A DNA stretch of 64,000 nt from an uncultured Spirochaetota bacterium (GCA_963733835.1 CAVTER010000004.1:43102-107101); one strand, 5' to 3'; shown: positions 12,611-35,278, counted from the first letter of the stretch. The notes: generated from the sequence alone by a model not told the origin. Made by a program: numbers and translations.

Positions 12611-13264
12611 ATGTCCTCCATCACTTCCGTCATCTTCGACTTCGGCGGCGTGCTGGGCCTGCACCAGGACCCCGCCCAGGCACGGGTCCTGGCAGACCTG
12701 TGCGGCCTTCCCATGGACCGCTTCCGCACCCTGTACGCGAAGGACAGGCTGATGTGGGACAGGTCGACCGTGGACGCGGCAGGGTACTGGGGCAGCATCC
12801 TTGCCGCGGCGGGCCGCCCCGTTTCAGCCGACCTTGTCGGCCGGCTGGTTCGCGCCGACATCGCCGCGTGGACACGGGTCAACGCGCGCGTGGTCGCCTG
12901 GGCCGCGGCCCTGCGCAGGAAGGGCTTCCGCACGGCCATCCTTTCGAACATGCCGCAGGAGATCCTGGACGACATGTGGAAGGACCCGCGCCTCCAGTGG
13001 ATGGCCGAGTTCCCCGTGCGGGTCTTCTCCTGCGAGGTCCGCCTGGTGAAGCCCGAGCCGGAGATCTACCGCCTGTGCCTGGACTCCCTCGGCGTGCAGG
13101 CGTCCGAGGCGATCTTCGTCGACGACACGATCCATAACGTCGAGGGCGCGCAGGCGGTGGGGATACAGGCCCTGCTCTTCCTGACCGCCCCGGAGGCTGC
13201 CGTGGAGATCGAGAGGCGCTGGGGACTGCCCGTGGACGAGCTGGAGGGCGACGGGAATGGGTGA
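12611..13264 (+). CDS. HAD-family hydrolase (haloacid dehalogenase-like phosphatase)
   Basis: MSSITSVIFDFGGVL carries the DxG motif I. The sequence also has the SN motif and the FVDD motif IV. Confidence 0.75.
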   Translation: MSSITSVIFDFGGVLGLHQDPAQARVLADLCGLPMDRFRTLYAKDRLMWDRSTVDAAGYWGSILAAAGRPVSADLVGRLVRADIAAWTRVNARVVAWAAALRRKGFRTAILSNMPQEILDDMWKDPRLQWMAEFPVRVFSCEVRLVKPEPEIYRLCLDSLGVQASEAIFVDDTIHNVEGAQAVGIQALLFLTAPEAAVEIERRWGLPVDELEGDGNG

Positions 13265-15053
13265 GGCCCCGCGAGCAGCCGCACCCGGGGTCACCTTCAG
13301 CATGCGCCTGAAGATCACCCTCACGTTCCTGGTCATCGGGTCCCTCGCGAGTCTCCTGCTCGCCGCCGGCACATTCACGATCCTGCAGCGCAGCATGTTC
13401 GGCGAGCTGCAGAACAGGGTGGGCGGTCTTGCCCGGGTCGCCGCGCAGCTCGTCGATCCAGAGGCATGCCGGCGCCTGGTCGCCCGTCTGCGGCCCGGCA
13501 TGTCCGACGACGGGGTCCGTGAGGCGGAAGACTCGGCGGACTTCCTGTCCGTCTCCGAGGCGCTGAACGCCGTCCGGGCCACCGAGGAGCGCCTCGTCCA
13601 CTACATCTACCTTTTCGCGCCAACCCCCGACGCGGAGACGGCGCTCTTCGTCGTCGACGCGGACCTGCTCGCCGACCGCGCGCGCGCCGAGGCCGGCGAG
13701 CTGTCCGCCGATGAGCTGACGCGCTTCGGGTCGGCCTTCGATCTCTCGGACTTTCCCGTCGCGAGGAGGGCCATCGCCGAGAAGGTCCCGCTGGTGGAGC
13801 AGGGCTACACCTGGGACGAGGCCTACGGGGTGAACTCCCTCACCGGATACGCCCCTGTCTTCGGCAGGGACGGCACGACCCTTCTCGGGGTTCTCGGGAT
13901 CGACATGGTGGACAGCGACGTGCGCGCCGTGCTGCGCCGCGCGAGGATCGTCACGGGGGCGGTGGTGGGCGGCGCTCTGCTGCTCACGATCCTGGCATCC
14001 ATCGTCATGGGGTCGCTGTTCACCCGGGGCATCGTGTCGCTGGACACCGTCGTGCGCAGGTTCGGCCAGGAGAACCTCGAGGTGCGGGCCGTGGTCCGTT
14101 CGCGCGACGAGGTCGGCCGTCTGGGCCTGAGCTTCAATGCCATGGCCGAGACCATCCAGGGCTACAGCAGGCGGCTGGAGGACCTGCTGGGAGCGTACGG
14201 CAGGTTCGTGCCGCACGAGCTGCTGCGCCTGCTGTCCAAGGAGAGCATCGTCGATCTGCAGCTGGGGGACCATGTCCAGCGGGACATGACGGTGATGTTC
14301 TCGGACATCCGCTCCTTCACCGCGCTCTCCGAGTCGATGACGCCGTTCGAGACCTTCAACTTCCTCAACTCCTATCTCAAGCGCATGGGGCCCGAGATCC
14401 GCAGGAACAACGGGTTCATCGACAAGTACATCGGCGATGCGATCATGGCGCTGTTCCCCCGCTGCGCCGACGACGGCCTCGCGGCAGCCGTCGCGATGCA
14501 GCAGAGGCTTGCCGAGTACAACGGGCACAGGAAGTCCAGCGGGTACCGGCCCATCTCCATCGGCATCGGCGTGCACTCGGGCACCCTCATGCTGGGAACC
14601 GTGGGCGAGCACGAGCGGATGGACGGCTCGGTGATCGCCGACGCGGTCAACCTGGCCTCGCGGCTGGAGGCGCTCACGCGTCTGTACGGCGCCGCCATCC
14701 TCACGACCGGTCGGACTCTCAAGTCGCTGAGGGCAACCGGCAGGTTCGCCTGCCGCTTCATCGACAGGGTGCAGGTGAAGGGCAGGGAAGGGACTGTCCT
14801 GCTCTTCGAGGTCCTCGACGGCTGCCCCCCCGCGGAGAGGGAGATGAAGCTTTCCAGTCGCGAGGAGCTCGCCCGCGGGCTGCGTTCCTACTACGGCCGC
14901 AGGTTCGCGGAGGCCCTCGCGATCTTCGAAACGCTGCGCGCCCGCAATCCCTCCGACGAGGTTGTGCGCATCTTCCAGAACCGAACCAAGGTGCTCGCCG
15001 GGGTTGGCGCCCCGCCGGACTGGCGAGGAGTGGAGCTGATCGAGGCAAAGTAG
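13257..15053 (+). CDS. Membrane-anchored class III adenylate/guanylate cyclase with a periplasmic sensor domain and HAMP
   Basis: An intact 598-aa ORF: one TM helix, a periplasmic region of about 200 aa, a second TM, a HAMP-like region, then the cyclase catalytic domain (MFSDIRSFTAL, YIGDAIMALF, GIGVHSG). Confidence 0.8.
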   Translation: MGEAPRAAAPGVTFSMRLKITLTFLVIGSLASLLLAAGTFTILQRSMFGELQNRVGGLARVAAQLVDPEACRRLVARLRPGMSDDGVREAEDSADFLSVSEALNAVRATEERLVHYIYLFAPTPDAETALFVVDADLLADRARAEAGELSADELTRFGSAFDLSDFPVARRAIAEKVPLVEQGYTWDEAYGVNSLTGYAPVFGRDGTTLLGVLGIDMVDSDVRAVLRRARIVTGAVVGGALLLTILASIVMGSLFTRGIVSLDTVVRRFGQENLEVRAVVRSRDEVGRLGLSFNAMAETIQGYSRRLEDLLGAYGRFVPHELLRLLSKESIVDLQLGDHVQRDMTVMFSDIRSFTALSESMTPFETFNFLNSYLKRMGPEIRRNNGFIDKYIGDAIMALFPRCADDGLAAAVAMQQRLAEYNGHRKSSGYRPISIGIGVHSGTLMLGTVGEHERMDGSVIADAVNLASRLEALTRLYGAAILTTGRTLKSLRATGRFACRFIDRVQVKGREGTVLLFEVLDGCPPAEREMKLSSREELARGLRSYYGRRFAEALAIFETLRARNPSDEVVRIFQNRTKVLAGVGAPPDWRGVELIEAK

Positions 15054-15087
15054 CGCGGGCTTCGCACATGCTAGCGCAGTTGATGTA

Positions 15088-15146
15088 TTGACACTTTTGT
15101 CACGAAATGGTAGCTTTTGAATCGTGAATTATATCACCATTCACTT
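15088..15146 (+). promoter_or_regulatory. AT-rich promoter/operator island upstream of the hydrogenase operon
   Basis: A -35 TTGACA (15088-15093), 17-nt spacer, and an extended -10 TGgTAGCTT (15108-15116). The palindrome TGACA-N4-TGTCA overlaps the -35, and the inverted repeat GTGAA-N11-TTCAC lies at 15124-15145. Confidence 0.5.
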
Positions 15147-15161
15147 CTTGGGGGAGACAGC

Positions 15162-15676
15162 ATGAGCACAGCACTTCAGAAGCGTCCAATCGACGAGGTG
15201 ATTGCGAGCCACCCGCCCAACCGGGACCACCTGATCTCCATCCTGCAGGAGGTCCAGGGCGAGTATGGCTACCTCTCCCGCGACAGCATCAACAGGATCT
15301 CCGACTACCTGAAGCTGCCCTCGTCGAAGGTCTTCGGCGTGGCCACCTTCTACAACCAGTTCAAGCTGACCGCGCCGGGGAAGATCCAGATCCAGATCTG
15401 CCGGGGAACGGCCTGCCACGTGAAGGGATCGCTCAACCTGCTGGACGCCCTGATCACCGCGCTGGGCATCGAGGTCGGCCAGACGACCAGGGACGGGCTG
15501 TTCTCGCTCGAGACGGTCGCGTGCCTCGGGTGCTGCTCCATCGCTCCCGCGATGATGGTGAACGGGAGGTTCTTCGGCCGGCTCGACAAGAAGCAGGTCG
15601 AGGAGCTGGTCGACAAGTTCCGCGCCGCGGGCGGGGTCGACGGCGCTTCCGGGCCGAGGCCGGGGGGTGGAGGCAT
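15162..15676 (+). CDS. hydC: NuoE-like [2Fe-2S] subunit of an NADH-dependent [FeFe]-hydrogenase (HydC/HndA-like); no stop seen before the downstream HydB-like sequence
   Basis: MSTALQKRPIDEV...QICRGTACHVKGS...CLGCCSIAPAMMVNGRFFG is the NuoE/24-kDa 2Fe-2S motif. Upstream are a GGGGAGA RBS and an AT-rich promoter. A Gly-rich linker (GGVDGASGPRPGGGG) runs directly into the next domain in the same frame. Confidence 0.7.
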
Positions 15677-17512
15677 GAACAAGGTCTTCATCGGCATGGG
15701 CACCTGCGGCCTGGCCACCGGCGCGGGCGAGGTGAAGACGGCGGTCGAGAAGTGGGCGGCCGCGCGGCAACGTGGCGCGTGCAGATCACCCCGACGGGCT
15801 GCATCGGCTACTGCAAGGCCGAGCCGATCATGGACGTGGTGACCGACACGGGCCACCGGGTCTCCTACGGCAACGTCACTCCCGAGGTGGCCAGCTTCAT
15901 CCTGGACGAGGTGTTCGTGCGCAGGAACACTGAAGCTCGACGGCCTGCTGGGCCAGTTCAGGAACGGCAAGGCGCCGCTCGCCGGGCATCCCCCTGATCG
16001 ACGAGCACCCCTACTTCCGCAAGCAGGTGAAGTACGTGCTGCGCAACTGCGGGGTCATCAACCCCGAGTCCATCGCCGACTACCGCGCGCACGGCGGGTT
16101 CAAGGGCCTGGAGCGTGCGCTGCACCATGACCAGCGCCGAGGTGATCGCCGAGATCACGAAGTCGGGCCTGCGCGGCCGCGGCGGCGGCGGGTTCTCCGC
16201 CGGCAAGAAGTGGGAGTTCGCCCTGGCCTCGAAGAGCGAGAAGAAGTACGTGATCTGCAACGCCGACGAGGGCGACCCCGGGGCCTTCATGGACCGCTCC
16301 ATCCTCGAGGGCGACCCCTTCTCCGTGCTCGAGGGCATGATCATCGCCGGCTACGCCATCGGCGCCAACGAGGGCATCATCTACTGCCGCGCCGAGTATC
16401 CCCTCGCCATCGAGCGGCTCAGGAAGGCCATCGGCGTCGCTGAAGGCGGAGGGGCTTCTCGAGAAGCCGCGTCGGTCCGAGCGGGCTTCCAGTTCACCCT
16501 GCGGGTGAAGAAGGGCGCCGGCGCGTTCGTCTGCGGCGAGGAGACCGCGCTGATGGCCTCGGTCGAGGGCCGGCGCGGCATGCCCCGGCCCCGGCCGCCG
16601 TTCCCCGCCGTGTCGGGCCTGTTCCAGAAGCCCACGATCATCAACAACGTGGAGACCTTCGCCAACGTGCTCGCACATCCTGCGCGAGGGGGCCGCGCGC
16701 CTTCGCGGCCATGGGCACCGCAGAGCCGCAAGGGCACGAAGGTCTTCGCCCTCACCGGCAAGGTGATGAACACCGGCCTGGTCGAGGTGCCCATGGGCAT
16801 CACCCTGCGCGAGATCGTCTTCGACATCGGCGGCGGCATCCCCGACGGCAAGGCCTTCAAGGCCGTGCAGATCGGCGGTCCCTCGGGCGGCTGCATCCCG
16901 GCCGAGCACCTGGACACGAAGATCGACTACGAGTCGCTGAAGTCCGTCGGCGCCATGATGGGCTCGGGCGGCCTCGTGGTGATGGACGAGGACACCTGCA
17001 TGGTGGACGTGGCCCGCTACTTCCTGCGGCTTCATCACCACCGAGATCCTGCGGCAAGTGCATCCCCTGCCGCGAGGGCACGCAGCGGCTGTACGAGATC
17101 CTCGACTCCATCGTCTCGCCCTACTCGCAAGATGAAGAGCGAGGAGGACAACCTCCTGCGCTTCAACCGGGTGCTGAACATGGAGAGCCTGGCGCAGGTG
17201 ATCAAGGACACCTCGCTGTGCGGCCTGGGCCAGACGGCGCCCAACCCCGTGCTGTCCACCCTGCGGTACTTCCGCGAGGAGTACGAGGCGCACATCTACG
17301 ACCGGAAGTGCCCGGCCCACCAGTGCAAGGGCCTGCTGACCTACGAGATCGACACCGACGCCTGCACGGGGTGCACGCTGTGCGCGAAGAAGTGCCCCAC
17401 GCAGGCCATCGTGGGCGAGAAGAAGAAGGCCCACTACATCGTGGACGAGAAGTGCATCCGCTGCGGCATCTGCCGCGACGTGTGCCGCTTCAACGCGGTG
17501 ACGGTGAGCTGA
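15677..17512 (+). CDS. hydB: NuoF-like flavoprotein subunit of an [FeFe]-hydrogenase (HydB/HndC-like) with an N-terminal thioredoxin-like [2Fe-2S] domain; at least 4 frame disruptions
   Basis: The pieces are MNKVFIGMGTCGL...ITPTGCIGYCKAEP (Trx-like ferredoxin), then RNCGVINPESIADYRAHGGFKGLERAL, then ORF 16115..17512 with GRGGGGFSAGKKWE, the FMN/NADH motifs CNADEGDPGAF and GAGAFVCGEETALMAS, ESCGKCIPCREG (after a shift), and C-terminal 2x[4Fe-4S] CxxCxxCxxxCP. Confidence 0.75.
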
Positions 17513-17525
17513 GGAGGCGACATCG

Positions 17526-19256
17526 ATGGTGAACCTGACGATCAACGACCGGAAGACCCTGCAGGCCGCCCCCGGGACGACGATCCTGGACGCGGCGACC
17601 GCCGCGGGCGAGCGAGATCCCCACCCTGTGCCACATCAAGGAGCTGTTCCCGAGCGGCGCCTGCCGCATGTGCGTGGTGGAGTGCAAGGGGCAGCCCGGC
17701 CTCATCCCCTCCTGCGCCTTCCCGGTCGAGGAGGGCATGGAGGTCGCAGACGCGCAGCCCGCGGGTCGTCGAACGCCCGCCGCACGATCATCCAGCTCCT
17801 GCTCGCGAGCCACCCCTTCGACTGCCTCACCTGCGCCGAAGAACGGCTACTGCGAGCTGCAGTCCCTGGCCTCGGAGTACGGCATCGACAGGGTGCCCTT
17901 CGAGGGCAAGACCCGCCACCACTACACCGACTTCTCCTCCCCCTCCATCATCCGCGAGCCGGACAAGTGCATCCTCTGCGGCCGCTGCGTGCGCATCTGC
18001 GAGGAGATCCAGGGCGTGGCGGCCATCGACTTCACCCGGCGCGGCTTCGACACCATGGTGCTGCCGCCCTTCGAGATGGACCTGAGCGAGACCACCTGCG
18101 TCAACTGCGGCCAGTGCACGCTCGCCTGCCCGACCGGCGCGCTGCACGAGGTGCGCGCCGTCGAGAAGGTGATCCAGGTGCTGCAGGAGGGCAAGAAGTA
18201 CGTCGTGGCCCAGGCCGCCCCCGCGATCCGCGTGTCGCTGGGCGACTTCTTCGGGCTGGCCCCCGGCGCCAACGTGACAGGCAAGGTCGCCGCGGCGCCT
18301 GCGGCGCATGGGCTTCCGCCAGGTCTTCGACACCGACTTCGCCGCCGACCTCACGATCATGGAGGAGGGCACGGAGCTGGTGCGCAGGATCACGGAGGGC
18401 GAAGAAGCTTCCGCTGTTCACCTCCTGCTGCCCTGCCTGGATCAAGTTCGCCGAGCACTACTACCCCGAGCTGCTCGCGAACATCTCCACCTGCAAGAGC
18501 CCGCAGGAGATGATGGGCGCCACCATCAAGAGTTACCTCGCGAAGAAGATGTCGATCGACCCGCGCGACATCTACGTGGTGTCGGTGATGCCCTGCACGG
18601 CCAAGAAGTACGAGGCGCTGCGGCCCGAGCTGTCGAAGGACGGCGTCACGGACGTGGACGCGGTGCTCACCACCCGCCAGTTCAACAGGATGATGCAGAT
18701 CTTCGGCATCACCTTCGAGAGCCTCCCCGAGGAGGAGTTCGACAAGCCCTTCGGCGCGCCCACGGGGTCGGGCGACATCTTCGCCGCCTCCGGCGGGGTC
18801 ATGGAGTCGGCCCTGCGCTCGGCCTACTACCTGCTCACGGGCAAGGACCTGGAGAAGCTGGACTTCGAGGCCGTGCGCGGCATGGCCGGGGTGAAGGAGG
18901 CCAGCGTGAAGGTGGGCGACCGCACCATCCGCGTTGCCATCGCCAACCGCCTGTCCAACGCACGGCAGATCGCCGACAGGGTGCGCGCGGGGGACTCGCC
19001 CTGGGAGTTCATCGAGGTCATGGCCTGCCCCGGCGGCTGCGCCGGCGGCGGCGGCCAGATGTACGGCTACGACCCGCAGAGGACCGAGCAGAGGATCAAG
19101 GCGATCTACGCCCTGGAGAAGAGCAGGTCGGTGCGCCAGTCGTACAAGAACCCGGCAGTCGCCTCCGTGTACAAGGAGTACTTCGGCGAGCCGGGCTCGC
19201 ACACGGCGCACGAGCTCCTGCACACGAGCTACGAGTCACGGCCCCAGAAGGGCTGA
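17526..19256 (+). CDS. hydA: [FeFe]-hydrogenase catalytic subunit (HydA/HndD), about 3 frame disruptions
   Basis: An N-terminal 2Fe-2S/4Fe-4S ferredoxin region is followed by H-cluster motifs L1 (TSCCPAW), L2 (MPCTAKKYE) and L3 (EVMACPGGCAGGGGQ) in the 17526..19256 frame. Parts of the N-terminus sit in frames 17668..18513 and 18308..19369. Confidence 0.8.
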   Translation: MVNLTINDRKTLQAAPGTTILDAATAAGERDPHPVPHQGAVPERRLPHVRGGVQGAARPHPLLRLPGRGGHGGRRRAARGSSNARRTIIQLLLASHPFDCLTCAEERLLRAAVPGLGVRHRQGALRGQDPPPLHRLLLPLHHPRAGQVHPLRPLRAHLRGDPGRGGHRLHPARLRHHGAAALRDGPERDHLRQLRPVHARLPDRRAARGARRREGDPGAAGGQEVRRGPGRPRDPRVAGRLLRAGPRRQRDRQGRRGACGAWASARSSTPTSPPTSRSWRRARSWCAGSRRAKKLPLFTSCCPAWIKFAEHYYPELLANISTCKSPQEMMGATIKSYLAKKMSIDPRDIYVVSVMPCTAKKYEALRPELSKDGVTDVDAVLTTRQFNRMMQIFGITFESLPEEEFDKPFGAPTGSGDIFAASGGVMESALRSAYYLLTGKDLEKLDFEAVRGMAGVKEASVKVGDRTIRVAIANRLSNARQIADRVRAGDSPWEFIEVMACPGGCAGGGGQMYGYDPQRTEQRIKAIYALEKSRSVRQSYKNPAVASVYKEYFGEPGSHTAHELLHTSYESRPQKG

Positions 19257-19284: not shown

Positions 19285-21352
19285 ATGGTGTCGGTCTACA
19301 CGGTCAGCGACACGTGCAAGAAGTGCTACTCGTGCGTGCGGTCCTGCCCGACAAAGGCCATCCAGGTGAAGGGCGGGCAGGCCGAGATCATCGAGGAGTT
19401 CTGCATCTCCTGCGGGTGGTGCGTGACCGCCTGCTCGCAGGGGGCCAAGCGCGTGCGCTCCTCCCTCGACCAGGTGCGCGCGCTGCTGGCGGGGGCCGGC
19501 AGCACCTACGCGCTGCTCGCACCCTCGTTCCCCGCGGCGTTCCTCGACACCCCGCCGCGCCAGCTTGTGGGCGCGCTGCGCGCTGTGGGCTTCGCCGGCG
19601 TGTTCGAGGTGGCATTCGGGGCCGACCTCGTCTCGTACGAGTACTACCGGCGGTTCCGCGCCATCGTGGAACGCTCCCCCGACGACTTCCTCATCTCCTC
19701 GCCCTGCCCCTCCGTGGTGCAGTACGTGGAGAAGATGGTGCCCGAGCTGGCCGGCCATCTCGCCCCCGTGGTCTCGCCCATGGAGGCCACGGCCCGGATG
19801 GTGAGGAGCAGGGTCGACCCGCGGGCGCAGCTCGTGTTCATCGGCCCCTGCGTGGCGAAAAAAGTCGAGGGGGACGGCGCTTCCGGCGCCTCGGGCGCTT
19901 CCGGCGCCGGTGTGGATGCCGTGCTGACCTTCGAGGAGCTGGTGGAGCTGTTCGCCGCGGCGGGGGTGGCACCCCCCCAGGCGGCGCCTGCCGACTTCAA
20001 CCCCCCGCACGCGAACCTCGGCAGGATCTACCCGGTCACCGGCGGGCTGCTCAAGGCAGCCTCGATCGACGCGGACATCCTCGAGAGCCCCGTCTACGTC
20101 GTGGAAGGGCCCGAGAGGGTGATGGACATGCTGCACGTGCTGTCCAACCGGGTGCGCACAGGCCAGAGGGTGAGCTACAGGCTGTTCGACCTCCTGTTCT
20201 GCGAGGGGTGCATCGGCGGCCCCTCGATGGTGAACGACCTCACCTTCTACGAGCGCAAGAAGTACGTGGTGCAGTACATGCATCACCAGCCCATGGCCCG
20301 CGACATCGAGGAGTGGGCCGAGGAACACGCCGAGTACCTCGACATCGACCTGTCCACGCGCTTCCACCCCGTGACGCGCGAGGAGGTGGCCGCCCCCGAG
20401 GAGGAGATCCGCAGGATCCTCTCCCAGACGGGAAAGCTCACCCCCGAGGACGAGCTGAACTGCGGTGCCTGCGGCTACCCCTCCTGCAGGGACAAGGCCC
20501 TCGCCGTGTACAGGGGCAAGGCCGAGGTGGAGATGTGCCTGCCCGTACCTCATCGCCCGGGTGGAGTCGGCGATGAAGGACCTCACGGCGAACCAGACCC
20601 GGCTCATCCAGGCGGAGAAGCTCGCCTCGATGGGCCAGATGGCGGCGGGGATCGCCCACGAGATCAACAACCCCCTCGGCGTCGTGCTCATGTACTCTCA
20701 CCTGCTGAAGGACGAGCTTCCCGAGGGCGCCCCGGGCAGGGCCGACGCGGACAGGATCATCGCGGAGGCCGAGCGCACGCAGAAGATCGTGCGCGGGATC
20801 CTGAACTTCGCGCGCGAGGAAAAGGTCGAGCGCAGGCCCACCGACATCAATGCGCTTCTCCGTGACAGCGTGACCGGGATCGCGGGAACTTCACAGAACG
20901 GGAAAATCCGTGTAGAGTGGGCTCTCGACGAACGCCTCGCCCCGCAGAACGTGGATGCGGGGCAGCTGCGCCAGGTCTTCGACAACATCGTGAAGAACGC
21001 GCGGGAGGCCATGCCCGACGGCGGGACGCTCCGCGTGTCGACGGAGGACGGGGAGGGGGAGTTCACGGTCCGCGTCGCGGACTCGGGTCCCGGCATCCCG
21101 GAGGAGAACCTGCCCAAGATGTTCTCTCCCTTCTTCACGACGAAGAAGGTGGGCAAGGGCACGGGCCTGGGCCTGTCCGTGTGCTACGGCATCGTGAAGA
21201 TGCACGGCGGGACCATCCAGGCCTCGAACAACCCCGAGGGCGGCGCGTGCTTCACCGTGCGCATCCGCCGCGTCGTTTCCGCGGCCAACGGGAAGGCGGC
21301 GCAGGCGGCAGTTTCGAAGGAGGACGGACGTGGCTCGAGTACTGATCGTTGA
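19285..21352 (+). CDS. Sensor histidine kinase whose input is a sensory [FeFe]-hydrogenase-like (HydS-type) domain: 2x[4Fe-4S] ferredoxin, degenerate H-domain, Cys4 cluster, HisKA and HATPase; one frameshift near 20540
   Basis: [22 protein letters not shown]...[11 protein letters not shown] is a 2x4Fe-4S region. Degenerate H-cluster motifs follow: ISSPCPSVV (versus TSCCPxW), [21 protein letters not shown]. There is a [12 protein letters not shown] linker and CGACGYPSC. After the frameshift come HisKA ([12 protein letters not shown]) and HATPase_c ([20 protein letters not shown]) in ORF 20465..21352. Confidence 0.75.
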
Positions 21353-21734
21353 CGACGACGCGGACCTCATCGCGGGGCAGCGGGCGTTCCTGGAATCAAG
21401 CGGCTACACCGTCGAGTCTGCCAACTCGATCGACGAGGGCCTCGCCCGGGCGAGCGAGTTCGCCCCCGACCTCATCCTGGCGGACCTCATGATGGAGCAC
21501 TACGACTCGGGATTCGTGTTCTGCAAGAAGGTGCGCGACCTCCCCGGGCTGGCGACGGTTCCCATCATCATGCAGACAGCCGCCCCCCGCAAGATCGGCT
21601 TCACCTTCGAGGGAAGCGCGGCACCGGGGCGGGAGTGGATGAAGGTGGACGAGGTGCTCACCAAGCCCGTTCCCCTCGAGCACCTGGTGGGCAAGATCGA
21701 GCAGCACCTGTCGGGCAAGGCCCGCCGTGCGTAG
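21330..21734 (+). CDS. Single-domain CheY-like response regulator
   Basis: [13 protein letters not shown]...DLILADLMME...TKP. Its start overlaps the end of the upstream kinase. Confidence 0.8.
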   Translation: MARVLIVDDDADLIAGQRAFLESSGYTVESANSIDEGLARASEFAPDLILADLMMEHYDSGFVFCKKVRDLPGLATVPIIMQTAAPRKIGFTFEGSAAPGREWMKVDEVLTKPVPLEHLVGKIEQHLSGKARRA

Positions 21735-21757
21735 GACGCGGTGCCGCGGGTGAGCTG

Positions 21758-23261
21758 ATGGACGGCGAGCGGCCCCCCCAGCCCAGCGCGGACGCCTCCG
21801 CGGAGCCGGTCCCGAGGGACCGCGAGCAGGTCCGGATTCTCGTCATCGACGACGAGGAGGGCATGCGCGAGGGCATGCGGCGGGTGCTGGAGCGGCGGGG
21901 TTTCGCCGTGCAGACCGCCCGCGACGGGGAGACCGCCATCCGCATGCTCGGCGAGGCCCCCTACGACCTGGCCCTCGTCGACCTGAAGATGCCCGGCATC
22001 GACGGGTTCAAGGTCACCGAGCACATCCGCCAGCGCTTCGGCGGCACGCATGGTGGTGGTCATCGTCTCGGCCCTCGCCACGGTGGAGGCGGCCGTGGAG
22101 GTGACCCAGCGCGGCGCCTTCGACTTCCTGGTCAAGCCGTTCACCCCCGACGACCTGCTGCAGGTCGTGAACAGGGCCGTGCAGCAGTGGCGCCTGATCC
22201 GCGAGCGCGAGAAGTACCTCTCCGAGCTGGCCACGGAGCGCAGCCTCTCCCACCAGATGATCTCCTCGATGCACGAGGGGGTGGTGGTGCTGAACGTGCG
22301 CCGCGAGCCGGTGCTGATGAACCCGCGGGCCGAGCACTTCCTGGGAAAGCGCTTCCGGGAGGGCCTGACCCTCGCGGAGCTGTTCACCGACCTGGACGCC
22401 AGCGCGGCGATCGAGGGGGTCCTCGACGCCGGGCCGCAGGCACCCGACAGGTCCGTGCAGGTGAGGGCGGGAGAGGCGATGCTCCAGGTGAGCGTGACGC
22501 CGCTCACCCGCGACGGGGCGGCCGGCGGGGCGATCGTGATCCTCACCGACGTCACGGCGAGCTGGAAGGCCGAGCAGGACAAGAACAGGTTCGTCTCCAT
22601 GGTGGCCCACGAGCTGAAGAGCCCGCTCTCGGCGATCATCAACTACATCAACGTCATCCTGACGGGGATGTTCGACAGGGACCCGGGGAAGATCCACGAG
22701 ATGCTCGACCGCTGCAAGGTGCGCGGCGAGGCGCTGCTGGACCTCGTGCGCGACCTGCTGTACATCAACGCGCGCGAGGTGGGAAAGGTCCAGCGCACGC
22801 TGGAAGACCTGGACCTGAAGGAGATCCTCGCGGCGCAGCTGGAGTTCTTCAAGGTCCAGGCGGACAAGAAGAAGCTGGTCACGGCCCTCGAGGCGCCGCC
22901 CGCCGCCTGCCCCGTGCACGCGGACAGGGGCGACATGGACAGGATCTTCATGAACCTCATCTCGAACGGCATCAAGTACAACCGGGACAAGGGCAGCCTC
23001 ACGGTCGCCGTGGCCGACGGCGGGGAGAGCTGGATCGTGTCCGTGTCGGACACCGGCATCGGGATGAGCGAGGCCGAGCGCGCAAACCTGTTCCAGGAGT
23101 TCTACAGGGTCAAGAGCGCGAAGACATCGGGAATCGCGGGCACGGGCCTGGGCCTTGCCACGGTGCACCGGGTGCTGGGCGAGTACAACGGCGCGATCGC
23201 CGTCGAGTCCAGGCCCGACGCGGGCTCCACCTTCCGCGTCACCTTCCCCAAGCGCGCATAG
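21758..23261 (+). CDS. Hybrid receiver-PAS-histidine kinase (REC, PAS, HisKA, HATPase_c); one frameshift near 22040
   Basis: The N-terminal receiver (RILVIDDEEGMREGMRR...DLALVDLKMPGIDG) continues after a shift in ORF 22050..23261 with FDFLVKPF, a PAS-like region, the H-box MVAHELKSPL, the N-box NLISNGIKY and G-boxes DTGIGM, GTGLGL. Confidence 0.75.
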
Positions 23262-23290: not shown

Positions 23291-23704
23291 CTACCGGTCC
23301 GCGGGGCACACCATGCGGACGGTCGGGAAATTCCTCCTGATTCTCGCGGGGTCCCGTGTCAGCAGCACGAGTTTCGACACCGCCGCGTGCGCGCCGATGA
23401 AGAGGTCGGGCAGGGGGCTCGTGCGGGCCCCGCCCGCCCTGCGGTAGCCGCGGAAGACCTTTCCCGCGAGGAACAGGGCCTCCCGGGGCATGTCGCTCCA
23501 GGCCAGGCCGCTGCCGCGGAGCGCCGACTCCAGCTCCTCGATGCGGGAGAAGCGGATCGAGACTTCCGAGTACACGATGGGATCGAGGAACACCGTGCCG
23601 TCGGCGGCCGCCCTCTCGAGGGTGTCGAGCGACCACTGCATCCACCGGACATCGTTCGTGAAGACGTCGAGCAGCACGGATGAATCGACGAGGTATTCCG
23701 CCAC
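23291..23704 (-). CDS. vapC: PIN-domain toxin VapC
   Basis: A 137-aa ORF starting MAEYLVDSSVLLDVF with conserved acidic PIN residues. It is immediately downstream of, and overlapping, the antitoxin gene. Confidence 0.75.
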   Translation of the reverse strand: MAEYLVDSSVLLDVFTNDVRWMQWSLDTLERAAADGTVFLDPIVYSEVSIRFSRIEELESALRGSGLAWSDMPREALFLAGKVFRGYRRAGGARTSPLPDLFIGAHAAVSKLVLLTRDPARIRRNFPTVRMVCPADR

Positions 23705-23919
23705 TACCCGCCCCGCGTCAGCCGCAGGATCTGCTCGGTCGACATCGTCACGTCTCCCCGGCCGACCAGCCCGCGCAGGGGAGTGTCGGACCTGCGCAGC
23801 GCCCGCAGCACGATCCTCCCGTCCTCCTCGATGAACTCGACTTCGGCGTGCGCATCGATGCGGTACTTGCGCCGCAGGGCCTGGGGGATCGTGACCTGTC
23901 CCTTGATGGTGACTCGCAT
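23704..23919 (-). CDS. vapB: AbrB/SpoVT-type antitoxin VapB
   Basis: A 71-aa ORF (MRVTIKGQVTIPQALRRKYRID) with a swapped-hairpin AbrB/MazE-like N-terminus. Confidence 0.7.
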   Translation of the reverse strand: MRVTIKGQVTIPQALRRKYRIDAHAEVEFIEEDGRIVLRALRRSDTPLRGLVGRGDVTMSTEQILRLTRGG

Positions 23920-24065
23920 GGTAATACCCTTACAGTAATACTGCCCCCACTGCCCCGCCGGTCAACCTCCCGCCTCCAATGAACGGGGCGAATCGGCGCC
24001 GGCATTGCCGTTGCGCGCGGGGAGCCTTCGGCCTACACTGCCGCCCGGGGGGGAGGAAAGCCCGC

Positions 24066-24707
24066 ATGCCGTACACCTACCAGATCGCCACCAGCGCGTC
24101 GCAGGACCGCCTGGAGAAGCTGATCGCCGAACGCCTGGCGCCCGGCGCGGACAGGGAGAGGATCGACGCCCGGATCTGGGACCTCTTCGGCGAGACGTGG
24201 GCCGTCATGTTCACGGACCTTTCGGGCTTCTCGCGCGGGGTCGCCGAGTTCGGCATCATCCACTTCCTGCAGGTCATCTTCGAGAGCCAGCGCATCCTGG
24301 TTCCCTGCATCGACAGGCACGACGGGATACTGTTGAAGAGCGAGGGCGACAGCCTCCTGGTGATCTTCCGCTCGGTGCGAAAGGCGCTGGAGTGCAGCCT
24401 CGCCATGCAGCGCGCGGCGCGGGACTACAACAGGGGCAGGACAGAGGCGGAGCAGATCCTGCTGTGCATCGGGCTGGGCTTCGGCCAGGTGCTGCGCATC
24501 GGCGACCACGACGTGTTCGGTGCCGAGGTGAATGCCGCGGCAAAGCTGGGCGAGGACACGGCAAAGGCATGGGAGATCCTCGTCACGGGCGCGGTGGCCG
24601 AGGGGGGACGGGGAGTCTCGGGGGTGTCGTTCAGTCCGATCCAGACCGTGCCGCCCGGGGCCGAGCGCGCGTTCCGCGCGGTGTACTCGCTGGAACGCAT
24701 GCCCTGA
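24066..24707 (+). CDS. Minimal stand-alone class III nucleotidyl cyclase domain protein (about 213 aa, no sensor or membrane domain)
   Basis: MPYTYQ...AVMFTDLSGFS...SEGDSLLVIF...GIGLGFGQVL...FGAEVNAAAKL are cyclase catalytic-core motifs. An RBS (GGGAGGAAAG) lies upstream. Confidence 0.65.
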   Translation: MPYTYQIATSASQDRLEKLIAERLAPGADRERIDARIWDLFGETWAVMFTDLSGFSRGVAEFGIIHFLQVIFESQRILVPCIDRHDGILLKSEGDSLLVIFRSVRKALECSLAMQRAARDYNRGRTEAEQILLCIGLGFGQVLRIGDHDVFGAEVNAAAKLGEDTAKAWEILVTGAVAEGGRGVSGVSFSPIQTVPPGAERAFRAVYSLERMP

Positions 24708-34072: not shown

Positions 34073-35278
34073 TCAGGCCTTCTTCAGCATCTCCTCCAGC
34101 AGGAGGTGGCAGTACAGGAGCTGGCGCGGAATGTGGAACGGGCCCTTCCACATGTTGCCCTTCAGGTCGTGCGACACGGTGCCGTCCCTGTGCAGGTAGC
34201 CGAACCACTCGCCGTACTGCCTGGTCGGGGAACCTGTCCATCGACCACGACAGTATCTTCTCGAACCAGCGCTCCCACTTCGGGTCTCCGGTGAGGTCGT
34301 AGGCGAGCAGCGCCGCATAGATGGCCTCGTTGTGCGGCCAGAACAGCTTCATGTCCCACTCGTACTGCACGGGCTGCCTGCCCTCGATGTCGACGAAGTA
34401 GAGGATGCCGCCGTACTTCGGGTCCCACCCCAGGTCGAGCGACCACTCGAGGATGGGCAGCGCCTTGTCGACAAGGGCCCTGTCGTTCCTCTGCTTCCCC
34501 TCTGCCATGATGAACCACGCCGTCTCGATCGCGTGGCCCGGGTTCACGCACCGGCCCTCGGGAGAGTCGCCCAGGTACTCGCCGTTCGGCCCCACGGTTT
34601 CCAGGAGAGCCTTCTTCTCGGGCTTCACGAAGAGGCGGAAGACCTCGTCGATCTGCGTGTCGATCATCGCGTCGTAGGGGAGGGGCGAGGCGGTGGTGTC
34701 GGCCCGGCGCATCACCTGCAGCGTGTTGATCTGGATCATCGACATGGAGTGCCCGCGCATGGGCCTCGTCTCCTGGAAGACCTTCGGCTCGAGAGACCCG
34801 GGGCCGGCCATTTCTTCGCGGCGGTCTCCTGGACGAAGCGCATGAGCGACCTGGCCTTCTCGAGGGACCGTGCGTCGCCGGCAGCCCTGCCGTACTCGGC
34901 GAAGGCCATGATCGCGAAGATCTCGGCGAAGAGGTAGCGGCGCTTGCGCAGCGGCCTGCCGTCGCGCGTGACCGAGTAGAAGACCCTGCCGTCCGTGTCG
35001 AAGCCGTGCGCCAGGATGAAGTCGATCGCGTGCTTCGACAGGGCCAGCCACTCCTCGCGCTTTTCCAGGTCGTTGTACAGGCGCGCGAGGGTCCACCCGA
35101 TCCTTCCCTCGACCCACATCGGCTTGTCGGAGCAGAGGATCTCGCCCTTCCTGTCCAGGAACGTCGTGAATCCTCCGTGCTGCCGGTCGGTGGCATGGCT
35201 GATCCAGAACGGGATGACGTTGTCCACCAGCTCGCTGCGGAACATGTCGCTCAGCTGCTTCATGCGGCGCTTTGTCAT
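34073..35278 (-). CDS. N-acylglucosamine 2-epimerase (AGE) / cellobiose-2-epimerase-family protein, 2 frameshifts
   Basis: The fragments 34736..35299 (MTKRRMKQLSDMFRSELVDNVIPFWISHATDRQHGGF), a middle frame (...AIETAWFIMAEGKQRNDRALVDKA...ILYFVDIEGRQPVQYEWDMKLFWPHNEAIYA) and 34073..34318 (FGYLHRDGTVSHDLKGNMWKGPFHIPR) join into an AGE-family (alpha/alpha)6 barrel protein. Confidence 0.7.

Follow-up and report, generated by a model that had tools for sequence, protein, structure and literature searches.

Organization of the hydCBA-hydS-HK Locus

The window analysed here is a stretch of 64,000 nucleotides (nt) from an uncultured Spirochaetota bacterium (GCA_963733835.1, CAVTER010000004.1:43102-107101) with a G+C content of about 69%. 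The subject of the analysis is hydS-HK, a gene in which a sensory-type [FeFe] hydrogenase is joined to a histidine kinase (HK), together with the two signalling genes behind it. In the window, hydC, hydB and hydA are located directly 5′ of hydS-HK. The signalling genes are half of a conserved operon, hydC-hydB-hydA-hydS/HK-REC-REC/HK, where REC denotes a receiver domain. The operon consists of the following genes:

15162-15674, plus strand: hydC, NuoE-like 2Fe-2S subunit
15675-17512, plus strand: hydB, NuoF-like flavoprotein subunit, broken by 14 uncompensated single-base insertions
17526-19256, plus strand: hydA, catalytic [FeFe] hydrogenase subunit of the NADH-dependent/bifurcating type, broken by six single-base insertions
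19285-21352, plus strand: hydS-HK, sensory-type [FeFe] hydrogenase and histidine kinase, 688 amino acids (aa) once one base is removed
21330-21734, plus strand: stand-alone receiver, 134 aa
21758-23261, plus strand: hybrid REC-PAS-HisKA-HATPase_c kinase (Pfam on the repaired product), with an extra base at about 22046-22047 in the receiver domain

Two relatives carry these genes intact, and the gene order of the window is kept in both:

L001, GCA_964353885.1 (83% aa identity): HAMP-cyclase, HydC (161 aa), HydB (607 aa), HydA (573 aa), HydS-HK (665 aa), REC (134 aa) and REC-HK (505 aa)
L087, GCA_964634495.1 (89% nt identity): HydS-HK (681 aa), REC (134 aa) and REC-HK (500 aa)

A tblastn search with HydC of L001 gave 82.5% identity over 15162-15641 of the window, and the L001 HydC product contains PF01257 based on Pfam annotation. 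HydB of L001 combines Complex1_51K and NADH_4Fe-4S (Pfam) and matches nuoF_fam, and HydA of L001 scores 811 bits with NF040763, "NADH-dependent [FeFe] hydrogenase, group A6" (cutoff 765). An earlier note on this DNA had placed the signalling genes directly downstream of hydCBA. This is correct: the hydA stop codon (19254-19256) is followed by a gap of 28 nt with a ribosome-binding site, after which hydS-HK starts at 19285, and the start of the receiver gene overlaps the hydS-HK stop by 23 nt. A terminator scan revealed no intrinsic terminators on the plus strand within the operon, which lends weak support to a single transcript.

Integrity of the hydS-HK Reading Frame

As sequenced, hydS-HK falls into two halves. 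Up to 20544, the sensor half is read in frame 1; from 20546 to the stop codon at 21350-21352, the kinase half is read in frame 2. One base separates them:

20545-20545, plus strand: extra base in ctgcccGtacctc (CTG CCC G TAC), between P420 and Y421, at the start of the helix to the kinase

At the same junction, L001 has CTGCCGTAC and L087 has CTGCCCTAC. In 43 homologues inspected residue by residue, CLPYLI runs over the junction uninterrupted. The best 120 homologues all share the same Pfam architecture (120/120), and all but one are 660-715 aa long; the sole short homologue (549 aa) is located on a 1.7-kb contig. The single polypeptide of H-domain and kinase proposed in the earlier note therefore holds for the family, L001 and L087 included, but not for the window copy as sequenced, which is split by the base at 20545.

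Frameshifts were mapped by a per-gene map of G+C at third codon positions (GC3) in each open reading frame (ORF), by Pfam searches on split fragments and by alignment to the intact relatives; a GC3 frame plot was too noisy. The nucleotide alignment with L001 revealed 22 uncompensated +1 insertions within genes and essentially no single-base deletions. These insertions were distributed among hydB (14), hydA (6), hydS-HK (1, at 20542-20545) and the third signalling gene (1, at 22046-22047). The alignment with L087 supports the insertions in hydS-HK and the third gene, plus one in hydA. Their density is uneven, with 20 of the 22 found in 2.7 kb of hydB and hydA (15768-18403) and none in the 2.5 kb upstream. 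The inserted base is G or C in 20 cases and lies beside a third codon position in 19. Homopolymer error was rejected as the cause, since no more than five of the 22 insertions lengthen an existing run of their base. At position 20545, the reading is CCCG in the window, CCC in L087 and CCG in L001; at 22046, it is AC in the window, A in L001 and C in L087. Alleles that are single in the two relatives thus stand side by side in the window, and the insertions look like the result of a consensus in which both alleles of strain-variable synonymous sites were written.

Repair by base deletion gave a HydB of 607 aa with 89.6% identity to L001 and a HydA with 88.3% identity, both without stop codons; HydS-HK was 83.5% identical, and the ORFs overall were 81-90% identical. 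One stop codon in the repaired REC-HK results from the crude handling of a compensating 2-nt insertion/deletion pair. Outside the operon, breaks were found inside single Pfam domains of a GlcNAc 2-epimerase (about 34800) and a Pyr_redox_2 protein (about 52800). Pseudogenisation specific to the operon was rejected, since all events are +1, the repaired ORFs are conserved and breaks also occur outside the operon.

Taken as real, the break would leave either a conventional stand-alone HydS, ending shortly past its Cys4 motif, and a kinase without a sensor, or an operon decaying to pseudogenes. The different frames of the two halves fit this explanation, an ATG at about 20570 could start a kinase of 260 aa, hydB, hydA and the third gene are broken too, and no independent reads of the source organism were found with which to check the frame. 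However, the break falls within a motif that is identical in all homologues inspected, and the events are uniform in sign and strongly biased in base and codon position, whereas genes that decay naturally are prone to deletions and acquire substitutions and stop codons as well. Moreover, the most affected products, HydB and HydA, are the best conserved, and the breaks near 34800 and 52800 concern unrelated genes. We therefore regard a real break as very improbable. Because the homologues are single polypeptides with the same junction and the insertions are uncompensated, the sequence comparison indicates a single polypeptide of H-domain and kinase, with a frame break that is a sequence or assembly artefact.

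A further irregularity was observed at the hydC/hydB junction (15632-15674), where an insertion of 31 nt relative to L001 blurs the 3′ end of hydC. As a consequence of this insertion, both genes are in one frame with no stop codon between them. The joining of hydC and hydB could be a real fusion of the NuoE-NuoF type, as in the spirochaete locus L004, or one more artefact.

Domain Architecture and Conserved Residues of HydS-HK

The 688-aa product obtained by deleting one base in ctgcccGtacctc was used for the analysis of the protein. It contains the following features:

19297-19446, plus strand: N-terminal 2x[4Fe-4S] ferredoxin-like region with C11, C14, C17, C21 and C40, C43, C46, C50; Fer4 (two motifs) and Fer4_10
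19504-20223, plus strand: H-domain, Fe_hyd_lg_C (PF02906), aa 74-313, 153.9 bits (cutoff 22.1), profile positions 3-245 of 245
19875-19907, plus strand: 9-bp tandem repeat CGGCGCTTC, 3.7 copies (Tandem Repeats Finder), encoding a GAS repeat, aa 197-207
20455-20544, plus strand: C-terminal Cys4 motif, FeS (PF04060), aa 391-420, 42.6 bits, C393-x2-C396-x4-C401-x16-C418
20630-21268, plus strand: transmitter with HisKA (aa 449-512, 51.2 bits) and HATPase_c (aa 557-661, 98.5 bits)

The modules read from the sequence in the earlier note, namely the 2x[4Fe-4S] region, the H-domain, the further Cys4 cluster between H-domain and kinase, and the HisKA/HATPase transmitter, were all recovered by Pfam on the repaired product, and the H-domain scored above its profile cutoff. 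The GAS-repeat linker was misplaced. The repeat forms a loop within the H-domain just past the L2 motif, with a predicted local distance difference test (pLDDT) score below 50 at aa 198-207 of an AlphaFold2 model, and it is strain-specific, being missing from the homologues, including L001 and L087. The true connection to the kinase is the Cys4 motif followed by about 28 residues up to HisKA, which are modelled as one helix. In the AlphaFold2 model (mean pLDDT 77.6, H-domain mostly above 90), a continuous helix at 419-477 begins right after the last cluster cysteine (C418) and includes His458.

The three loops of the H-domain read S-S-P140-C141-P (L1), G187-P-C189-V-A-K192-K (L2) and L304-F-C306-E-G-C309 (L3). 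SSPCP, GPCVAKK and FCEGCIGG align with TSCCP, MPCxxKK and CPxGCxxGG of the solved group A enzymes; in the wider alignment, ISSPCPS corresponds to FTSCCPA, IGPCVAKK to xMPCxxKK, and L3 to VMxCPxGCxxGG. The alignment bears out the sensory-type substitution of SSPCP for TSCCP and the presence of the L2 and L3 motifs that the earlier note had reported. The H-cluster ligands C141, C189, C306 and C309 (C300, C355, C499 and C503 in CpI) and the CN-binding K192 (K358 in CpI) are kept, and the proton-relay cysteine (C299 in CpI) is replaced by P140, M353 by G187 and M497 by L304. A sequence search of the PDB returned group A enzymes only and no solved sensory hydrogenase.

Conservation was assessed in an alignment of 44 homologues with 58-94% identity. 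All 16 cysteines are invariant, i.e., the eight of the N-terminal clusters, those of the Cys4 motif and the four of the H-cluster, as are P140-C141-P142, G187-P-C189, K192 and C306-E-G-C309. The invariance of the four H-cluster ligands and K192 argues for a functional H-cluster. The class I (HisKA) kinase features are also complete: the H-box histidine, H458 (20657-20659), serves as the phospho-acceptor, and the N, G1, F and G2 boxes are all present in HATPase_c. Within them, H458, N567/N571, D599xGxG, F613/F616 and G625-L630 are invariant. Based on NCBIfam, the nearest named kinases to the transmitter are AtoS and ZraS.

The sensor core was also compared with a representative library of 1.84 billion proteins, in which it matched 810 clusters at E <= 1e-30. 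Among the best 150 clusters (50% identity), 46 carry a kinase. The sensory-type substitutions are kept across these 150 clusters: the position of C299 is never cysteine in the 46 kinase-fused clusters, and that of M353 is glycine in 144 of the 150.

Receiver Partners

The stand-alone receiver at 21330-21734 was found as the earlier note had described it, with an intact reading frame, a Response_reg score of 59.2 bits and a complete receiver pocket (D9/D10, D52, T83, K112). Its orthologues are 114-158 aa long and share the signature DLMMExxDxGF. No specific NCBIfam model matched the stand-alone receiver, and no che genes adjoin it.

For the third gene (21758-23261), the REC-PAS-HK architecture of the earlier note agrees with Pfam, but the frame is broken at about 22046, and the PAS domain is below the Pfam cutoff in the window copy; PAS_4 passes in the orthologues of L001 and L002. 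All 12 second kinases checked with Pfam in other loci are REC-HisKA-HATPase_c hybrids (12/12). Short forms of 373-395 aa occur in most phyla, and PAS-containing forms of about 500 aa occur in spirochaetes. The two kinases of the operon come from different subfamilies, HydS-HK being AtoS/ZraS-like and the second kinase PnpS/PhoR-like, which suggests different partner specificities.

Distribution and Gene Neighbourhood

To describe the distribution of the module, one genome per species was scanned, which gave at least 590 confirmed matches, and the best 80 loci were examined. These loci include 75 full-length, non-duplicate copies, each from the genome of a different species, and at least 15 phyla are represented. 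The carriers belong to the Spirochaetota, Planctomycetota (including Ca. Kuenenia), Bacteroidota, Chloroflexota, Actinomycetota, Myxococcota and Desulfobacterota, and further to the Hydrogenedentota, Verrucomicrobiota/Lentisphaerae, Acidobacteriota, Melainabacteria, Elusimicrobiota, Marinimicrobia and others. The genes hydC-hydB-hydA lie directly upstream of hydS-HK on the same strand in 51 of 59 loci, a stand-alone receiver adjoins hydS-HK in 57 of 72, and the second kinase, a REC-kinase hybrid, is located within 2.6 kb downstream in 66 of 67. The two additional signalling proteins that the earlier note saw stacked behind the sensor are therefore part of a module conserved across phyla.

Two spirochaete loci, L004 (10001-19127) and L025 (10001-21499), are organized differently. 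They are without hydCBA, and the sensor-kinase and REC-kinase hybrid genes are located directly upstream of a bidirectional [NiFe] hydrogenase operon of the Hox type, which contains HoxEF, HoxU, HoxY, HoxH, a receiver and HypF/C/D. Apparently, an [FeFe]-cofactor sensor is paired with an [NiFe] enzyme in these loci.

In L019, two radical-SAM genes (13718-16291) with the size and domain content of HydE (about 350-380 aa) and HydG (about 470-490 aa, with BATS) directly follow the second kinase, as annotated by Pfam on this locus only. ORFs of similar sizes follow the hybrid in L065, L067, L026, L031 and L043, so that the arrangement is seen in several phyla. If the radical-SAM genes are true H-cluster maturases, they would be part of these operons. 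In five Bacteroidales loci (L015, L024, L046, L066 and L077), a second, shorter HydS-like gene is located upstream of hydC in divergent orientation (about 3.8-5.2 kb, minus strand).

The best 70 library clusters of the sensor core include 36 with HATPase_c, 12 with Sigma54_activat/HTH_8 and about nine with PAS. The 12 fusions to a sigma-54 activator AAA+ domain and a Fis-type helix-turn-helix would be one-component transcription activators with an H-domain. Such fusions speak for a regulatory role of the sensor core.

Several other genes were observed around the operon in the window. Class III nucleotidyl cyclase genes are found on both sides: a HAMP-Guanylate_cyc gene (13257-15053, 598 aa) upstream and a Guanylate_cyc gene (23979-24707, 242 aa) downstream. 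The upstream cyclase also occurs in L001, but it is missing from L002 and L006 and is therefore probably outside the module. Just past the operon, in convergent orientation (23291-23919, minus strand), there are genes for a PIN-domain toxin (VapC-like, 137 aa) and a MazE/AbrB-type antitoxin (71 aa). This pair is missing at the same position in L001 and in the P0001 contig.

Candidate Transcription Signals

Two putative regulatory elements were found upstream of hydC:

15088-15116, plus strand: promoter-like element, TTGACA, 17-nt spacer, TAGCTT; a candidate, not listed by the consensus scanner
15122-15139, plus strand: Rex-like inverted repeat TCGTGAATTATATCACCA, between the promoter-like element and the hydC start

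Based on the alignment, TTGACA and the spacing are kept in five spirochaete loci. The consensus for the Rex operator is TTGTGAANNNNTTCACAA (PMC6391272). With three mismatches, the site in the window is the sole match to this consensus at <=3 mismatches in the 64 kb (0.21 expected by chance). At the same position, L007 (about 3590) has a perfect TTGTGAATTAGTTCACAA and L002 has one mismatch. In total, a Rex-type site is kept in five spirochaete loci, including those of L007, L002, L001 and L006, upstream of hydC. The hydrogenase-sensor operon may thus be under NADH/NAD+ (Rex) control.

Matches to the sigma-54 promoter TGGCAC-N5-TTGCW were fewer in the window than expected by chance, and the region upstream of hydC contained no such match. 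NtrC-type control of the operon is therefore unsupported, despite the AtoS/ZraS-like kinase.

Comparison with Known Sensory Hydrogenases

Ballor, Paulsen and Leadbetter (2012) reportedly described hydrogen "sensors" in termite-gut treponemes, in a paper whose title is cited in PMC4070709. The fusion of an H-domain to a kinase had been treated as unusual in the earlier note, but it is not new, as the 46 kinase-bearing clusters also illustrate. In HydDB, class C1 comprises group C [FeFe] hydrogenases described as "Histidine kinase-linked (putative)" (PMC5037454). In 2024, group C proteins with HATPase_c or histidine-kinase domains were reported beside A3 hydrogenases (PMC11406978); the gene was named bfuT, located downstream of bfuA in "sub-type V" bfuCBA-T clusters, with WP_006928132.1 of Caldithrix abyssi as the HydDB reference, and a second bfuT was noted in Bacteroidota. 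Compared by description, HydS-HK shares with BfuT and HydDB C1 a sensory H-domain and a histidine kinase, encoded just downstream of the catalytic subunit of a bifurcating trimeric hydrogenase, and the five Bacteroidales loci mentioned above show the arrangement with two bfuT genes. In contrast, neither the stand-alone receiver nor the REC-kinase hybrid is mentioned in the published descriptions (the term "response regulator" does not appear in PMC11406978), and the window copy comes from a high-GC Spirochaetia lineage.

With TmHydS of Thermotoga maritima (M2f, group C) and the RaHydS/HfsB type, HydS-HK shares the two N-terminal [4Fe-4S] clusters, the loss of the proton-relay cysteine, the replacement of M353 by glycine, the Cx2Cx4Cx16C motif and a gene position beside a bifurcating hydrogenase. 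However, those proteins end in a PAS domain and need separate signalling partners, whereas in HydS-HK about 28 helix residues lead to HisKA. The residues at two positions also differ, with proline instead of alanine at C299 and leucine instead of serine at M497. The C-terminal PAS domain, the original basis for calling group C/M2f "sensory", is missing in HydS-HK, in which no PAS domain was found at E <= 0.01.

TamHydS of Thermoanaerobacter mathranii (M2e, group D) resembles HydS-HK in its core of 2x[4Fe-4S], H-domain and Cys4 motif, in the absence of PAS, in the replacement of M497 by leucine and in the location of its gene beside a bifurcating hydrogenase; it is also encoded next to a histidine-kinase-like ATPase gene (PMC8163306). 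Unlike HydS-HK, in which M353 is glycine and the kinase is fused, TamHydS is without a fused output domain and has serine at M353. Serine at this position is a hallmark of group D, in which serine or threonine is typical (PMC8163306, PMC10055695). The loss of C299, the Cx2Cx4Cx16C motif and the core of 2x[4Fe-4S] and H-domain are common to TmHydS and TamHydS (PMC8163306, PMC10055695), and a Cys4 motif of the same form has been described for M2e/M2f sensory hydrogenases (PMC8163306). From its motifs and the description in PMC11406978, we infer that HydS-HK is a group-C-like sensory [FeFe] hydrogenase.

A functional analogue is provided by HoxBC-HoxJ-HoxA of Cupriavidus and HupUV-HupT-HupR of Rhodobacter (HydDB group 2b), in which a histidine kinase that controls hydrogenase genes is informed about H2 by a low-activity hydrogenase (PMC5037454, PMC5665086). 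The likeness is limited to function: their [NiFe] metal site and fold are unrelated to the [FeFe] H-domain, sensor and kinase are separate, and the output is a DNA-binding protein of the NtrC type, whereas here sensor and kinase are fused and the partners are without a DNA-binding domain.

Proposed Mechanism and Alternative Explanations

Based on the above results, the locus probably encodes an H2-/redox-responsive phosphorelay, with HydS-HK as one polypeptide, tied to the bifurcating hydrogenase. We suggest the following course of signalling. Slow oxidation of H2 at the H-cluster, or electron exchange via the N-terminal clusters, would determine the redox state along the chain of clusters. 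The helix would then pass on the state of the C-terminal cluster to the DHp domain, changing the autokinase or phosphatase activity. Phosphoryl groups may next reach the stand-alone receiver, the receiver domain of the second kinase, or both; the second kinase would add a second (PAS) input. In this way, HydABC, the electron-bifurcating hydrogenase, would have its activity or expression coupled to H2 or to the redox status. A functional link to hydrogenase is supported by the presence of hydCBA upstream in most loci and of the NAD-linked Hox in two; the linkage of the gene to NAD-linked hydrogenases and to its two receiver-containing partners is tight and ancient. Architecture, residue conservation and synteny are shown by the sequences, whereas we infer what the stimulus is, in which direction regulation runs, which proteins exchange phosphoryl groups and what the output is. 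The earlier note had also read the locus as an H2/redox phosphorelay, which is the most reasonable reading; its further step, "direct phosphorelay control by H2", was itself deduced, in an operon with no output domain.

Several observations weigh against this interpretation. Metagenome contigs gave no exact match across the 20545 junction, with or without the extra base. The pLDDT of the linker helix is low (46-57), which can be attributed to the inability of a monomer model to represent the kinase dimer. No DNA-binding or other output domain was found in the module in about 70 genomes or at any locus examined, and the Rex-like operator suggests that transcription may be run by another system. 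In the literature searched, no biochemical study of any kinase-fused member was found. Finally, the stimulus could be H2 or cellular redox, and the association with [NiFe] Hox cannot separate the two, since HydABC and Hox are both NAD-linked.

The last point leads to an explanation in which HydS-HK is a redox sensor and not an H2 sensor. The protein would report the reduction of ferredoxin/NAD(H) or of HydABC via its N-terminal clusters, the H-cluster site would be redox-active or structural, and the protein may even be docked on HydABC as a fourth subunit, "BfuT". The two ferredoxin-type clusters are typical electron-exchange modules, a related PF04060 motif is found in redox enzymes, and in nearly all cases the gene shares an operon with an NAD-linked hydrogenase (HydABC in 51 of 59 loci, Hox in two); furthermore, the protein is regarded in PMC11406978 as an additional subunit, T, of BfuABC. 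Nevertheless, the invariant H-cluster ligands and K192 speak for a working H-cluster, and the relatives TmHydS and TamHydS bind an H-cluster, react with H2 and are sensor-like (PMC8163306, PMC10055695). The two modes of sensing come together in practice, since the protein would perceive H2 in the form of reduced clusters. A purely redox role is possible but rather doubtful. It is also conceivable, though unlikely, that the circuit responds to H2 and is non-transcriptional: the phosphorylated stand-alone receiver would bind HydABC, or the [NiFe] Hox enzyme in some spirochaetes, and switch its activity or direction, while Rex would handle transcription. Possible control of transcription by Rex would indeed leave room for a post-translational role of the relay. 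Lastly, HydS-HK might be mainly a catalytic hydrogenase, i.e., a low-activity isoenzyme whose kinase is minor or vestigial. The H-domain score is high, and the best NCBIfam model for the H-domain is TIGR04105, "monomeric [FeFe] hydrogenase"; its 222 bits, however, are far under the cutoff of 450. Kinase-fused members always lack the proton-relay cysteine, M353 is replaced by glycine, and in prototypical enzymes changes at these two positions strongly cut turnover (PMC10055695). In addition, the invariance of all catalytic boxes of the kinase and the co-occurrence of two cognate-looking receivers indicate selection on signalling, so that a mainly catalytic role is extremely improbable.

Biological Significance

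The hydS-HK gene is a Spirochaetia addition to a known, widespread and experimentally uncharacterised family, and its split reading frame should not be taken as biology. The literature seems to have paid little attention to the conserved pair of a stand-alone receiver and a REC-kinase hybrid, and to the absence of any DNA-binding output. The three signalling genes and hydCBA make up one conserved unit, and the missing DNA-binding output merits specialist attention. The two characterised sensory [FeFe] hydrogenases, TmHydS and TamHydS, are without an assayable output. With a kinase-fused member, signalling can be followed directly by biochemical means, as autophosphorylation under N2, H2 or CO, and the conserved neighbouring receivers are defined candidate partners. 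This opportunity is not specific to the window copy but belongs to the whole family, with its members in at least 15 phyla.

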